Source: an uncultured bacterium (lineage in GTDB: Bacteria > Chlamydiota > Chlamydiia > Chlamydiales > SM23-39). Taken from it: 64,000 bases of DNA. Below the pieces are notes generated by a model. The model searched no databases, was not told where the DNA came from, and was given only the letters and a program-made list of their open reading frames with translations. The translations under genes were made by a program, and so were the position numbers. The stretch covers positions 800,001 to 864,000 of the forward strand of contig OY970323.1 of NCBI GenBank assembly GCA_963716985.1, read 5' to 3'. Positions 787-50,671 of this stretch are shown piece after piece; positions within the stretch are counted from its first letter, which is position 1, and each line of letters starts with the position of its first letter.

Positions 787-1085
787 ATGAGTATGCAAAA
801 TGCGGCTCGCGTAGTCCTCATTCTTTTAACAATTTTAAGTGCAGGGCTTTTGTTATCAACCAGTGAGGAGGCGTGTTCTCAGATGAAGGGATTGAATCAA
901 CTTCTAACATGTGAGCTCGAAAGGCTGCAAAACCAGTATGGCTTTCCGGGAGCAACAGTCGCATATGTGTTGCTCGACGGGACCGTGGGCGAGGTTGCAA
1001 GTGGATTTGCAGATATCGAAACTCAAGAACCTATGACCACCAAGTCTCGGATGCTGGCAGCCAGCATTGGAAAAACCTTCGTTGC
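787..1085 (+). pseudogene. Serine hydrolase (class C beta-lactamase-like family), N-terminal part of a split gene
   Basis: Signal peptide, then FPGATVAYV...GFADIE...SIGKTFVA (SxxK motif). After 1085 the ORF reads into the antisense strand of the portal gene. The C-terminal part is at 49754-50671. Confidence 0.9.
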
Positions 1086-2090
1086 TGCATTGAGCCCCGC
1101 CGCACTTCGCCCGAAGAGCAAGGAGACAGGCACCCCAGACACTGCAGATAAAGCCAGCATGAAACGATCCAAAAGTTCAGGAATGCCGACGATGTTGGTT
1201 GAAGATTTCTCATATTTTTCTGCAGCATCTAAAATCATCGTATTGGTTGCACTTTTGGTCATATTGAGCAGGTCGAGCCGCTTCATCACCTGGTTGTCAG
1301 CGCATTGCGAAGCGATTAATTCAGCTAGGTTTGGAATCGACAGGGTATAATTGACAAAATCCTGCATAATGAGGCCTGCATTGGCAAAGGCGGTTGAGTA
1401 ATTCCTCAACTCATCATAAATCGATTGGATCAGTGGATCTCCCCATCCATTATTGAAATTTTGCTGCCGGGGAGGCAGGATCGACCAATCGATCCGCAGA
1501 ATGCGGGAATGGTGCACATAGAACAAAGCTCCTGTTCGTGTATCATTGACGGTATACACATTTGGAAAACCGTAATTGGGACTATTGAGATCCTTTTCAA
1601 AGGTGCCGTCCCTGCTAAACGATTGATATCGATCAAAAACATGGAGCCATTTCACATCGCGAATGTTTTTCTCATCGACCGGTTCTTCAAGGGGCAACCC
1701 ATCTGCAATCCCCATGACGCATAGAGCGCCTCCATACAAACGGGCCCATCTGAGGAGCGTGATTAAATTGAAATTGGCCTTAATGGTCTCCAGCGCGGCA
1801 TTAGTTTTTTGGTCCGAATCTCCCTCGATTTCCCATCCTTGCCGCACCATTTCGGCTGGGATGATGTCCATAATCCGTCGCGTCACTCCATCGGATCGAT
1901 AGAGCTGATCCAGTTCTGCCTGCTCGAATATCTTTTCCAAGCGGAACTGCGCATGCACATTTTTATCTCTGCCGCGCAACCCAAGTCCCGTGAGGACGTT
2001 GATCCAGCCATCCGACTTAACCGCACCATCGTGATGTGCGATTCGGCTTTGTTCTTCCGAAGATTTCTTTTTGAAATTGTAAGTACCCAT
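1086..2090 (-). pseudogene. Phage portal protein (DUF1073-like), 3'-truncated
   Basis: DGWINVLTGLG, ARLYGG, GWGDPLIQ, VSGVPVSLLFGRSAAGLNA. The usual continuation after GLNA is replaced by antisense hydrolase sequence. Confidence 0.85.
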
Positions 2091-2455
2091 TTTTTCCCGG
2101 ATTAAGAAGGCGCTGCATTGGGAAATTGGGTCTCAACGGCGTATGAAAAGCCGCTTTAGAATAGATGGGTCATTGCAGATCTGAAGATCTGAATAAAATT
2201 CACCTTATCATATGGAAATAAAAAAGAATAGCTTATGTTTTAAATGCGAACCCGCTTTTACAGACCATAAGGGGAACTTGATTTTTCGCGCGGCGTTTAA
2301 CGACAAGAAAGGCCGCGCGATAAGATTGATTTTTGGTTTGTTGCGCGGGCTATATGTTTAATTATTTGATGCTCAATTGGTTGGGAATGGCGTGAACAGC
2401 AGCTTACTATAATTTGTCTTGGCGATTTGCCGCTATTTTCTGTGCTCAAATATCC

Positions 2456-2541
2456 ATCCCCATGCCGGAAGAATGCATTTTAGGGATTAAAAAAATCGCC
2501 TAAAAACAGATCCCCAAAATGGAAATCTCTTGTTTGGGGAT
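2456..2541. repeat. Two 32-bp palindromic units (ATCCCCAAA-N14-TTTGGGGAT), 54-bp period, upstream of the ATPase gene
   Basis: Units start at 2456 and 2510. Confidence 0.85.
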
Positions 2542-2597
2542 GGATTTTATTGCCGCTTTCTGCTTATCATATAGGCATGATTAATCGGGTGTAAAAA

Positions 2598-48005: not shown

Positions 48006-48061
48006 TTAAATAACAAGAATTTCATTTCCTGTGATCTCGGTAGCTATTGAGAAAAATAAAA

Positions 48062-49225
48062 TTACCAGATCTTTTCCAGCGGTTGACAGGGATGTAGTTT
48101 CTTTAAAAACTCTTCGACAGGAAGACAGAGGATATTGTCCTTTTTAAGAGCTTCTTTGCCTCGGTATAAGAGCAAGGGAAAAGCATTGGGGTAATCTGCT
48201 TGGAAGGCTTTTAATCCTGAAAAATCCTGAGGGTTGAGATTTTTCGCATTTTTAACTTCAATGGCATAAAAGTTTTTTTCTCCATAAACGATAAAATCTA
48301 CCTCTGATCCAGAGCGTGTGCGCCAGAAATAGAGTGAACTTTGGTCGCTTTGATAGGAGATCCAACTTTTCAAATGTTCAGCAACTAAACCCTCAAGAGC
48401 CGCTCCTTCGATTTCTAGGGAGGTGTCTAAAAAGCCCTGTTTTTTCAAACTGCGAAAGACACCCGGATCAAAGAAATAAAATTTGGGATGAGAGGAAAGC
48501 TCTCGTTTTGCTTTTTTCTCAAAAACCGAAAGAGTATAGCCTAGTAAAAGATCGCAAAGAATTTGAAAGTAATTTTCCACGGTTTTACGGGGGACCTCAC
48601 ATTCTCGAGAAATATTGGAAAAATTGATCAAAGAGGCATGGGAAAAAGCCATCGCTTCTAAGAAACGAGAAAAATGGCCAATTTGACGGACGAGGGCCTC
48701 TGCTTTGACCTCTTCTTGTAGATACAAGTCGACGTAGGCTTGCAATTTTTGTTCTTTATTTTCTGCGGTCCAGATCAAGGGGATCAGGCCTGTTTTCAGC
48801 GCTTGGTCTAATTGAAACTGATCTTTTAATTCACAGGCTAAAAAGGGATGAAAATTTTTCCAAAGCGCTCTTCCTCCTAAAAGATTTACGCCGCCTCTTC
48901 TCAATTTTCGAGCCGAAGAGCCGGTGAGCACAAATTGCCTCTCTTTTTTCTCTTCGATGAGCAAATGTACGATATCGAGCAGCTTGGGCACTTTTTGGAT
49001 TTCATCAATAATGACCCACTTTTTATTTTCATTGATGTCCAATTGCTCTTTGAGGAGCTCTGGTCTGGCAGCAAAACGTCTCTCTTCACTTGCGTTTAAC
49101 AGATCGATCCACAGAGTTTCTTGTAAATAGGTGTTTTTGAGCCACGTGGTTTTGCCAGTACCTCGAGGGCCAAACAGAAAATAGCTTTCATTTTTAGGAG
49201 GTTGAAAAATCCGCTCAATAAACAT
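48062..49225 (-). CDS. AAA ATPase (AAA_14 + DUF4143-like)
   Basis: GPRGTGKT, IIDEIQK, LTGSS, PKFYFFD, EVDF...IEVK. Confidence 0.9.
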   Translation of the reverse strand: MFIERIFQPPKNESYFLFGPRGTGKTTWLKNTYLQETLWIDLLNASEERRFAARPELLKEQLDINENKKWVIIDEIQKVPKLLDIVHLLIEEKKERQFVLTGSSARKLRRGGVNLLGGRALWKNFHPFLACELKDQFQLDQALKTGLIPLIWTAENKEQKLQAYVDLYLQEEVKAEALVRQIGHFSRFLEAMAFSHASLINFSNISRECEVPRKTVENYFQILCDLLLGYTLSVFEKKAKRELSSHPKFYFFDPGVFRSLKKQGFLDTSLEIEGAALEGLVAEHLKSWISYQSDQSSLYFWRTRSGSEVDFIVYGEKNFYAIEVKNAKNLNPQDFSGLKAFQADYPNAFPLLLYRGKEALKKDNILCLPVEEFLKKLHPCQPLEKIW

Positions 49226-49504
49226 ATTTATACCTATGTTGCCATTTTGAGTCTCATTTTGGCATGATTAGGATAATTTTGCAACATAACGCCTTAAGCT
49301 ATTTAATACAAAAGGCTTATCATTAGAATTTTAACAATTTCGTGTTTCCTTGTCAATGCTTTGGAGAGCCTTCCATGCCAATTTCATGGAAAAGAACCAT
49401 CGCACAATACGTAGCCAAGCTCCATCGCCTATATGCACAAAAACAAGAAGCACAGGTTTAATGATTATGCAGGCCTTGGCCTCCCCCTATGCTGGAAAGG
49501 ATGT

Positions 49505-49775
49505 TTAATCGGCAATGCCAAAGATATGAAGCAGTGGGATAAAAAGTGCACGATCACGTTCTTTGCCCGAAGGAGAGACAATGGAGGCCAACGAAATCAA
49601 TGTCTCGACAGCACGGTTTTCTGAAGCATCTATCCATTCCAGACTTGATTTTACCTTCTCATTTCTTAGCACTTCGAACAACTCCTGATGTTCCGAGCAA
49701 AGTTGTACAGCTAATAGTTCTCCCCATACAAATAGAGAAAAAAAACGAACCATCTAGTGCTCCTCAATCCCATCA
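49505..49775 (-). pseudogene. Truncated N-terminal fragment, possibly of an M20/M28 peptidase
   Basis: LISLASIVSPSGKERDRA then loss of similarity; follows the hydrolase stop codon. Confidence 0.4.
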
Positions 49776-50671
49776 TGTTTCTCTCGTTCATAGTTAATGA
49801 CAATCTCCGCCAGACGGTGTTCCATATCGCGGGCAAATGCTGAGATATCGTTATCGGTGTTCATTTGAAAAGCAATAGCAACGCCATATTTCGGATAATA
49901 ACGCATGCTTGAGCTATATCCTGGAATAACGCCACCATGTCCCCACCTTTGGCTCAAAGAATCCTCTTGCTCTATGAGAACGCCCGCGCCATACCGAACT
50001 TTGGACTCATCATTGCTTGTAGGCACAGACTGAAACAGATCGGTCAAATAATCAGATTGCATGGCATGACCTTCATAAAGGAGCTTCGCCCATATAGCAA
50101 GATCATGTGAGGTACTGACCAGGCCTCCTCCGGTCCATTCTACAACGGGGTTCCAGACTAATATCCCCGACTCATCAACGGTTTTTCCGGGCAAGCCAAA
50201 TACATTGTTTTGCGCAGCATAGCCTGCTACCAAACCCGGAAGTACCATTCGATCCGAGGGATTTGTCATGTCCAGCTTGAGCGGCTTCAGAAACCGCCGC
50301 TCCAGTTCTTCGTAGTAGCTGCTGCCCGTGACTGCCTCAATAACAAGTCCTAAAAGAATGTACCCCGTGTCGGTGTATGCCCAACCCTTACCCGCTTCAA
50401 ATAAGGGGGCCTGATCTAAAATGCATTCGATCAGCAATTCAGGCGAAAAAAAACGATCGACGAAAAACCCTCTGCGTAAAAGCAATTGCAGAAAGCTCGT
50501 TGTGTAGACATGGTCGGGCAATCCTGAACTATGTGTCAGTAGGTGTCGAAGCGTGATTGTTTCATGATTTGGCAAACGGGAATACCAACTGCGGCCACTC
50601 AGCCAGTCTGAAAGTGGGTCATCCAGGTTCAGATGGCCTTCCTTGGCCAGAGCCACAACAGTCGCGGCAAC
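49754..50671 (-). pseudogene. Serine hydrolase, C-terminal part of the gene split at 1085
   Basis: VAATVVALAKEGHLNLDD, LLTHSSG, YTD, GHGG; lacks the SxxK motif, which lies at 787-1085. Confidence 0.9.

Follow-up and report, generated by a model that had tools for sequence, protein, structure and literature searches.

A serine hydrolase gene split by a 49.6-kb inversion, very probably linked to an IS21-family element, in an environmental chlamydia chromosome

The window analysed here, 64,000 nucleotides of an environmental chlamydia chromosome, carries two halves of a serine hydrolase gene in opposite orientations, with a phage remnant and a cargo block between them and a truncated IS21-family element adjoining the distal half. 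The features are, from left to right:

1-782 (full copy -747 to 782), minus strand: IS701-family element (PF13546, NF049999), with about 15 other copies in the genome
787-1085, plus strand: serine hydrolase N-terminal half, with a signal-peptide-like start and the SIGK (SxxK) motif; PF00144 positions 6-60
1081-1085, plus strand: GTTGC, first copy of the 5-bp target duplication (window sequence, comparison with the gene in G001, a same-genus genome)
1086-50666: segment of 49,581 bp read as inverted from collinearity with G001 contig C41 and from GC skew
1086-2090, minus strand: phage portal gene, first 335 of 485 codons, cut exactly at 1086; PF06381 positions 3-285 of 357
2598-10212: rest of the phage remnant, with ATPase, tyrosine integrase, GNAT, large terminase (6645-7994), methylase and DUF1064 (Pfam, related viral contigs)
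10444-49225, mostly minus strand: cargo block (Pfam), with GNAT acetyltransferases, alpha/beta hydrolases, two long PF00144 paralogs, MerR/TipAS regulators, ABC-F, APH, a PF04439 nucleotidyltransferase, MFS and a SpoU methylase
49538-49744, minus strand: M20 peptidase gene fragment (residues 11-79 of 412); the M20 gene is next after the hydrolase in G001
49754-50671, minus strand: serine hydrolase C-terminal half, 305 codons plus stop, frame still open; PF00144 positions 61-320
50667-50671, minus strand: GTTGC, second copy of the 5-bp target duplication (same comparison), adjoining the IS21 right tip
50672-52491, minus strand: truncated IS21-family element, with right tip TGGAAACG... at 50672, istB and the 3' part of istA
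50874-51650, minus strand: istB, intact (PF01695, 6e-67; NF038214)
51743-52489, minus strand: istA, last 248 codons only (residues 313-560 kept)
52492-52664: 173 bp, single-copy in the genome (repeat map), joined to the broken istA
52665-57356, plus strand: IS110-family element with an IS66-family element nested within it (Pfam, repeat map)

On the left, the IS701-family element stops 4 bases ahead of the hydrolase ATG and replaces the 3' end of an upstream CPBP protease gene, cut at residue 184 of 276. On the right, the 173 bp matched nothing else in the genome and nothing in G001 contig C25 or the other loci compared, and the target sites of the neighbouring IS110-family copies had no common motif. 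The matches of contig C25 are scattered over the genome and do not yield the ancestral right-hand neighbour beyond the IS cluster.

Sequence comparison confirmed that 787-1085 (plus strand) and 50671-49754 (minus strand) are the two halves of a single PF00144 serine hydrolase gene. Their Pfam profile matches, positions 6-60 and 61-320, abut, and the SxxK motif, here SIGK, lies near the end of the N-terminal half; profile match and motif together point to a beta-lactamase/transpeptidase-like fold. A class C beta-lactamase was considered and rejected, with the intact G001 ortholog scoring 39 bits against the NF033085 cut-off of 415. An earlier sequence-only reading had proposed that the plus-strand half ends in SIGKTF followed by GTTGC at 1081-1085, and that the minus-strand half starts with the GTTGC that is the reverse complement of 50667-50671. 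Sequence and translation agree on both points: the N-terminal translation ends ...AASIGKTFVA(A) and the C-terminal one begins VAATVVALAKEG. Rejoined, the halves give 299 + 918 - 5 = 1212 nt, or 403 codons plus a stop, and this arithmetic, together with the Pfam abutment and a whole ortholog, upholds the earlier view of one 1212-nt, 403-aa gene split into inverted halves 49.6 kb apart.

That ortholog, a 399-aa protein in G001, reads ...SIGKTFVAATVVALAKEG... across the break. Its residues 1-100 correspond to window positions 793-1089 (75% protein identity) and its residues 98-399 to 50671-49766 (83%). The flanks on G001 contig C41 are collinear with the window, with the upstream region and the N-terminal half on the plus strand and the C-terminal half and the M20 start on the minus strand, so the search for an intact hydrolase in relatives, suggested in the earlier reading, was successful. 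The hydrolase was continuous across the break point in all 25 homologous loci inspected (14 of 19 genome loci and 11 of 14 metagenome loci, 8 partial or very distant rows having been left out beforehand).

At the N-terminal break the plus strand reads ...AGCATTGGAAAAACCTTC GTTGC|TGCATTGAGC, with GTTGC at 1081-1085 and the break before 1086; at the other end, plus-strand positions 50667-50671 are GCAAC, followed from 50672 by the IS21 tip TGGAAACGATCAC.... The 5-base overlap between the halves is a true duplication of gene sequence rather than a chance repeat, because each half has GTTGC in frame at the same ortholog codon. Inverted GTTGC at both breakpoints and a genuine IS21-family end at 50672, with a TG tip adjoining the second GTTGC copy, were both recognized in the first reading and stand. 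An inverted target duplication at both segment ends is what inversion by intramolecular transposition produces; the canonical outcome also places one IS copy at each breakpoint, but here the portal gene begins at 1086 with no IS21 nearby. Recombination between long inverted repeats now present was rejected as a cause because the breakpoints lack such repeats. Two GNAT copies (6032-6590 and 46369-46928), tried as candidate inverted repeats, are in direct orientation.

The portal match is strong (208 bits, PF06381 / TIGR01555) but partial, spanning profile positions 3-285 of 357 and 335 of 485 residues, and thus falls short of full length. A 485-aa homolog, P0003, is 99% identical to the fragment. 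The break at 1085|1086 is fixed by a metagenome contig in which the intact portal gene reads on and by 12 related viral loci, which bears out the earlier observation of portal sequence from 1086. Across the break, the intact portal gene reads GCAACG, which repeats the duplicated pentamer with one extra base and lies 3 bases out of register. The reading had also proposed looking for the portal 3' end elsewhere in the genome. It was absent: a PF06381 scan of the genome returned the window copy only, and tblastn of the genome with the last 155 residues of P0003 gave a best E of 0.5.

The 49.6-kb inversion is very probably real and linked to the IS21 element. The segment comprises the phage remnant, the cargo, the M20 peptidase fragment and the hydrolase C-terminal half minus the duplicated 5 bases, and the GC skew of 10.3-49.5 kb (-0.016 to -0.05) lies within a replichore of positive skew. 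The earlier proposal that a whole phage and its cargo had been flipped thus holds for the inversion of the block, but the phage is a remnant only. The events appear to be fairly recent, as judged from sequence, because the two IS21 copies in the genome have diverged at 3 of 1820 bases and neither gene half has lost its open frame.

The window IS21 copy retains 1820 of 3009 bp and is missing positions 1821-3009, and with them its left end and the catalytic portion of istA, so that the IS21 end on which the first reading relied belongs to a truncated copy without a left end. Only one other copy is present in the genome. Its 560-aa IstA scores 195 bits against the NF033546 cut-off of 160, and the window IstB (50874-51650) scores 242 bits against the NF038214 cut-off of 200. 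The tips, TGGAAACG and TGTGAACG, are of the TG...CA type; the right tip TGGAAACGATCAC... and the left tip TGTGAACGATCAC... are identical at 17 of 20 positions, and CGATCAC...TTGGAGAT motifs, identified by eye only, are repeated inside both ends. The other copy is flanked on both sides by a 5-bp direct target repeat, CCTCT, which shows that this element makes 5-bp target duplications. IS5376, another IS21-family element, also gives 5-bp repeats in vitro (PMC10122671). The element resembles IS21 and IS5376 in its IstA and IstB scores, its tips with internal repeated motifs and its 5-bp duplication, and differs in that the window copy is a stump of 1820 of 3009 bp lacking the left end and catalytic istA. 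The istB of the other copy is interrupted by a group II intron. Since one copy is a stump and the other has a split istB, neither is autonomous, yet the genome retains one whole istA and one whole istB.

The sequences show that the gene is split, that 5 bp are duplicated in inverted orientation, that the portal gene is broken at an exact position, that the element makes 5-bp duplications and that its left side is truncated; how the events were ordered, that a single end attacked and that the ends were sealed, as described below, is what we infer. We tentatively favour an ordinary IS21 insertion, followed by a single-end attack of the left tip on the portal gene and then by a deletion, and put this three-step route as a whole a little short of an even chance. 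First, a normal insertion in the intact hydrolase would give N half-GTTGC-[left end ... right end]-GTTGC-C half. IstA would then nick the left tip, and the free 3' OH would attack the opposite strand of the same chromosome within the portal gene, about 49 kb further downstream, directly after portal ...CTCAATGCA, in a single-end strand transfer. The portal gene would thereby gain a free 3' OH end, and the flank a strand that begins 5'-GCAACGAAGG. Sealing of the two, in which the terminal CA of the portal could pair in place of the left-tip CA, would yield CTCAATGCA|GCAACGAAGG on the minus strand, identical to the present junction. Resolution or replication of the four-way structure would invert the DNA from the IS21 element to the portal break. 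A later deletion would then remove the second joint created, between the left tip and the 3' half of the portal gene, with the loss of 1189 bp of IS21 and the remainder of the prophage. In a variant with the same outcome at the junction, a further IS21 copy would have lain inverted within the portal gene, and the left tip would have struck 2-3 bases beyond the right end of that copy, by the chemistry through which such elements form dimers.

Beginning with a normal insertion, these two steps give the observed junction base for base and account for the lost IS21 left end. A review describes frequent rearrangements adjoining the 5' (left) end of ISPve1, of the IS21 family (PMC9330008). Against the favoured route, the reciprocal joint of left tip and portal 3' half is absent from the genome, three events are needed, the 173 bp beside the broken istA are left unaccounted for, and the likeness of the portal GCAACG to the pentamer has to be treated as chance, which we estimate at roughly 1 in 100. 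Within the literature open without subscription, we found neither an IS21-family inversion by single-end attack nor one with an IS-free junction. A search for the pre-inversion state with the IS21 right-tip 28-mer gave 0 matches in viral contigs and 0 in metagenome contigs, and no relative among the genome and metagenome contigs had IS21 inside an uninverted hydrolase gene. The relatives of the C-terminal half are at most 64% identical in metagenome contigs and at most 83% in genome contigs, too distant in every case to reveal IS21 at one or the other possible starting site.

The other candidate starting place is the portal gene itself, as in the first reading, where a surrogate end was thought to have acted with the true one. 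IS21 would have been located inside the portal gene, its right tip adjoining ...AATGCA directly or lying 2-3 bases further on, the transposase would have cut that boundary on both strands, and the right tip and portal flank end would have entered the intact hydrolase together with a 5-bp stagger. The segment would flip in one step, the IS21 left part and the portal 3' half being deleted later. This has the merit that the inverted duplication and the two junctions follow from one balanced reaction. The portal end terminates in CA, like IS21 ends, but a terminal CA is expected by chance 1 in 16. The first step of copy-out transposition cuts the flank 2-3 bases outside the attacked end, which would make a flank 3' OH near the right tip a natural intermediate; IS30 is described as cutting its flank with a 2-base bridge, and IS21 is listed among the copy-out-paste-in families (PMC9333248). 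However, the 60 bases inward from 1086 resemble neither IS21 end, left or right, beyond chance level. Their best matches (6 of 20, to the right end, and 9 of 30) are at or below the background of TG-starting sites, 79% of which, in the window, equal or exceed the 6 of 20 of the portal flank; the flank is below their mean. By sequence matches, the second end does not resemble a true terminal repeat enough for transposase binding. In addition, IS5376 in vitro failed to integrate a random end bearing a 3'-terminal CA and required two full terminal repeats (PMC10122671), and a separate, unrelated deletion would be needed for the IS21 left side. A portal-internal CA as surrogate end, the mechanism first suggested, is therefore not borne out, and we regard this route as unlikely.

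Considerably less probable is a canonical IS21 intramolecular inversion, through a tandem-dimer junction or replicatively, that placed IS21 at both breakpoints and was followed by tip-to-tip loss of the copy between the N-terminal half and the portal. The inverted target duplication is its expected mark, and inversions by IS-dimer junctions are described for IS30 and proposed for IS21 (PMC9333248, PMC9330008). No remains of a second copy are present at 1086, however, and the GTTGC and TGCAT flanks are not direct repeats, so that slippage could not have excised the element cleanly. Even with GCAAC duplicated in the portal, excision would give GTTGC-ATTGAG, and the window is three bases longer.

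Only marginally behind in our estimate is illegitimate microhomology recombination between the hydrolase and the portal gene, with no transposase at the N junction and IS21 as a bystander or a separate insertion. The intact portal sequence ...CCCGTTGCATT... has CGTTGC in common with the hydrolase flank, and at the N junction a 9-base stretch, GTTGCTGCA, is the same as in the G001 gene. Yet all joins worked through (CGTTGC or TGCA) predict ...CGTTGCATTGAG, three bases short of the observed ...CGTTGCTGCATTGAG; the C-terminal half reads GTTGCCGCG, such that a 9-base overlap would entail two mismatches; and exactly 5 duplicated bases touching the IS21 tip have no explanation.

We think it very unlikely that one or both junctions are chimeric products of assembly. 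Contigs from 4 metagenome runs aligned to 700-3000 include none that bridges 1085|1086 and one with intact portal sequence, and a search of sequencing runs found none with at least half the words of 783-2200. Nevertheless, the N junction is single-copy on both sides, the junctions have just 5 bases in common, too few to mislead an assembler, the genome is one 2.07-Mb contig with many IS copies resolved, and a random chimera would not match a target duplication that lies 49.6 kb away at an IS21 tip. Least probable of all, with hardly any weight, is that the halves come from two different paralogs with partners elsewhere, a check proposed in the first reading: the N-terminal half is less like G001 than the C-terminal half (75% vs 83% protein identity), but each half occurs once in the genome, the only other matches are two full-length paralogs of about 22% identity with no further fragment, and the two halves join at one and the same codon, overlapping by 5 bases.

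Returning to the single-end attack that we favour, its expected scar can be set beside known systems. IS26 and Tn3-type replicative inversions and those driven by (IS30)2 or (IS21)2 junctions share the inverted target duplication at the flipped ends and one IS end newly joined to its target (PMC9330008, PMC9333248), but they leave an IS at both breakpoints, whereas 1085|1086 here has none. ISPve1 of Paracoccus versutus resembles our case in undergoing rearrangements at its 5' (left) side soon after insertion; its deletions are of 0.5-4.5 kb with the IS kept, in contrast to a 49.6-kb inversion with the left end lost (PMC9330008). In site-specific IS30 dimerisation between distant copies, the 3' OH of one end strikes another copy a few bases beyond its opposite end, which would leave an IS-free flank-to-flank joint as here (PMC9333248), but the portal gene would have had to hold a second IS21 copy, of which there is no trace, and we found no such report for IS21 in the sources accessible.

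As a genome scar the event is of a common type, apart from one unusual junction. The effect on the organism is minor, with breaks in one hydrolase gene and in a decaying prophage and with a 38-kb cargo block turned to run against replication. IS-driven inversions are a major route of genome decay in IS-rich, host-associated bacteria and are usually recognized by an IS copy at each breakpoint; to our knowledge, an inversion with an IS-free breakpoint lies outside the canonical IS21 pathways. Here the inverted 5-bp duplication links the event to an IS21-family element though one breakpoint is IS-free. That the IS21 transposase itself made this junction, by single-end attack on a distant site or with the flank of an end as second partner, is close to a balanced question, tilted slightly toward no. 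If it did, IS21-family elements would be able to make balanced inversions without an IS at one breakpoint, scars that would normally pass as transposon-independent. Surveys based on paired IS copies would then overlook some transposase-made inversions, and the junction would offer a natural substrate for the study of IstA / IstB single-end reactions.

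A serine hydrolase gene (its nearest named relatives, 72-76% identical in protein sequence, are bins of uncultured Chlamydiae and Parachlamydiales) is split into two pieces ~49.6 kb apart on the single 2.07-Mb, 44% G+C contig that carries the window as its bases 800001-864000.

Pieces of the split hydrolase gene
787-1085, + strand: N half, an open frame from 787 reading ...MLAASIGKTFVA to 1085
50671-49754, - strand: C half, a 305-codon frame that begins VAATVVALAKEG

The N half matches positions 6-60 of the Pfam Beta-lactamase profile (PF00144) and the C half positions 61-320, so the two adjoin with neither gap nor overlap. 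GTTGC lies at the same codon in both (1081-1085 on the + strand and 50671-50667 on the - strand), bearing out the inverted pentamer that the sequence-only reading had placed at the two breakpoints. Counted once, it gives by arithmetic on lengths 1212 nt, or 403 codons plus stop, the size of the rebuilt frame proposed there. The predicted unbroken reading was also found, in a whole 399-codon ortholog in G001, a genome of the same genus, which reads ...SIGKTFVAATVVALAKEG... at the break. Three matches to a 16.7-kb G001 contig indicate that the upstream neighbor and the N half have kept their orientation and that the C half has been flipped together with the beginning of a downstream M20 peptidase gene.

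Matches between the 16.7-kb G001 contig and the window
G001 12242-13481: window -1992 to -748, + strand
G001 13772-14073: window 791-1089, + strand
G001 14065-15198: window 50671-49539, - strand

The surroundings of both halves are eroded. An IS701-family element (-747 to 782; ~15 other copies in the genome) ends 4 bases ahead of the hydrolase ATG and now occupies the place of both the intergenic region and the final 92 codons of an upstream CPBP protease gene, so the native sequence upstream of the N half has also been lost. The M20 peptidase gene, which follows the hydrolase gene in G001, survives as a fragment (49538-49744, residues 11-79); the rest of it is not in the genome, and a cargo block begins at its break.

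Directly after the GTTGC copy at 50671, an IS21-family element sets in with its right tip, TGGAAACGATCACGAAAGTGG... This copy has a whole istB, the helper ATPase gene (50874-51650; NF038214, 242 bits, cut-off 200), and only the last 248 codons of the transposase gene istA; it ends at position 1820 of 3009 and is followed by 173 bp (52492-52664) without a match in any sequence searched, and then by an IS110-family element (52665-57356) in which an IS66-family element, bounded by terminal inverted repeats (53685-53744 and 56366-56425), is lodged. The genome has one other IS21 copy (genome positions 417688-422641), 3009 bp long once a 1945-bp group II intron is subtracted. Its istA is whole (560 codons; NF033546, 195 bits, cut-off 160), and its istB is split by the antisense intron, in which reverse transcriptase and maturase domains were confirmed. 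The two copies are therefore defective in complementary genes, and between them one whole istA and one whole istB are still encoded. Since the second copy is flanked on both sides by the direct repeat CCTCT, this element makes 5-bp target duplications, as does the IS21-family element IS5376 in vitro (PMC10122671).

The other breakpoint lies in a phage portal gene, which runs leftwards from 1086 on the - strand (PF06381, 208 bits, profile positions 3-285 of 357 only). A 99% identical public protein, P0003, encoded on a 51-kb contig, has 485 residues, and the window encodes the first 335. On a peat metagenome contig, 1086-1368 is matched with one mismatch and the sequence before 1086 continues ...CGCCCGT, in an intact portal gene reading NATGDNDVRNFY across the break; 12 related viral loci have AAT GCN ACN GGA there. 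Because all of these read on at this point, the portal break is placed at 1085|1086. The missing 150 codons, sought across the whole genome, are not encoded. What the sequence-only reading took for a phage is a remnant consisting of DUF1064, methylase and terminase genes, an integrase cassette and the portal stump, after which the window holds no capsid or tail genes. The cassette (2598-6567; tyrosine integrase, ATPase and GNAT genes) sits between the large terminase and portal genes, and a related viral contig (L023, 1580-9846) has an integrase with different other genes in the same slot. Its gene content suggests that this slot, within the packaging module, is a variable cargo site linked to an integrase.

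On internal evidence, we consider it very probable that the inversion is real and linked to IS21. The N junction is flanked on either side by single-copy DNA, neither breakpoint has long inverted repeats, and the two junctions have only five bases in common. An assembly artefact is very improbable, since the shared five bases form the target duplication belonging to an IS tip 49.6 kb distant, something that no chimeric join would recreate. In 20-kb steps, GC skew is positive between about 0.1 and 1.18 Mb of the genome, runs from -0.016 to -0.05 across 10.3-49.5 kb of the window, and is weakly positive in the flanks at 57-80 kb; the negative block is the pattern expected of DNA flipped not long ago. 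That the halves stem from two paralogs is scarcely credible: a genome search with the G001 protein returned the two halves, two full-length paralogs (~22% identity) and nothing else, each half occurs once as DNA sequence, and all 25 homologous loci inspected (14 of 19 from genomes, 11 of 14 from metagenomes; 8 rows that were partial or very distant were left aside) are unbroken across the SxxK...VAAT stretch. Neither half thus has its own partner elsewhere, the refuting case named in the sequence-only reading.

For the route, we tentatively favor, at a little under an even chance, an IS21 insertion followed by single-end attack by the left tip and a deletion. The first step would be ordinary, with IS21 inserting into the intact hydrolase gene and duplicating GTTGC. 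A later nick by the IstA transposase at the left tip would leave a flank strand starting 5'-GCAACGAAGG, and the 3' OH of that tip would attack, on the opposite strand, the portal gene behind ...CTCAATGCA. If the 5' end of the flank were then sealed to the 3' OH of the portal, the product would read CTCAATGCA|GCAACGAAGG; at every base, this predicted join agrees with the - strand of the window at 1094-1076. At the portal end, the terminal CA can pair with the TG formerly paired to the left tip, which would account for the TG at 1086 without its being an IS end. Resolution or replication of the half-exchanged structure, which would be equivalent to a Holliday junction, would then produce the inversion. 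The left tip would thereby have been joined to the 3' half of the portal gene; this joint is no longer present and would have been deleted later. We infer the single-end step; the loss of precisely the left side of IS21 fits it better than a surrogate end in the portal gene, under which this would be an unrelated deletion. For ISPve1, also of the IS21 family, frequent rearrangements at the 5' side have been documented (PMC9330008).

The sequence-only reading had instead paired the true right tip with portal sequence ending in CA as a surrogate end. Copy-out transposition, as described for IS30, cuts the flank a few bases outside the attacked end (PMC9333248), so that a flank 3' OH near the right tip is a natural intermediate. 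Two results nevertheless make this proposal unlikely. Integration of IS5376 in vitro needed two complete terminal repeats, and a random end with a terminal 3' CA gave no integration product (PMC10122671). In a comparison over 60 bases inward from 1086, 4 of the first 20 positions agree with the left IS21 end and 6 with the right, and at least as many matches occur at 79% of the TG-starting sites in the window.

To our knowledge, the canonical IS21 routes (replicative inversion, or a tandem-dimer junction attacking the same molecule) all leave an IS at both breakpoints, whereas no IS copy is present at 1085|1086; it is thus quite improbable that a canonical inversion took place and that one of its two IS copies was lost afterwards. 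A microhomology join without transposase could draw on the intact portal gene, which reads GCAACG across the break (a match, at a three-base offset, to the duplicated pentamer and the hydrolase base next to it), and on nine N-junction bases, GTTGCTGCA, that equal the G001 gene sequence where the C half reads GTTGCCGCG. With simple joins of this kind, the junction would be three bases shorter than it is, so we take both likenesses as coincidences (chances of about 1 in 100 for the first and 1 in 16 for the second), although they keep such a route alive at low odds. The offset match (1076-1094 against the intact portal) was used by no model tried.

The 38-kb cargo block (10444-49225) contains many genes from families with antibiotic-modifying or -sensing members.

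Content of the cargo block, 10444-49225, with functions predicted from families
More than one member: at least eight GNAT acetyltransferases, many alpha/beta hydrolases, two 600-aa PF00144 proteins, two MerR/TipAS regulators
One member: an APH-type kinase, a PF04439 nucleotidyltransferase, a SpoU methylase, an ABC-F protein, an MFS pump, a glyoxalase/bleomycin-resistance-fold protein

Of the two long PF00144 genes, one has a 71% match to another G001 contig, C25. A GNAT gene region is present in two direct copies, 87% identical, in the phage remnant (6032-6590) and near the far end of the cargo (46369-46928). Farther along, a DUF4143/AAA_14 ATPase gene (57538-58910) is 95% identical to its G001 counterpart, compared with ~70-85% for ordinary shared genes; this identity suggests recent exchange or a mobile gene.

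In the openly accessible literature on IS21 biology, we found no report of such an inversion in this family. The event belongs to a known kind of IS-driven genome decay, of which the IS-free junction is the unusual part.
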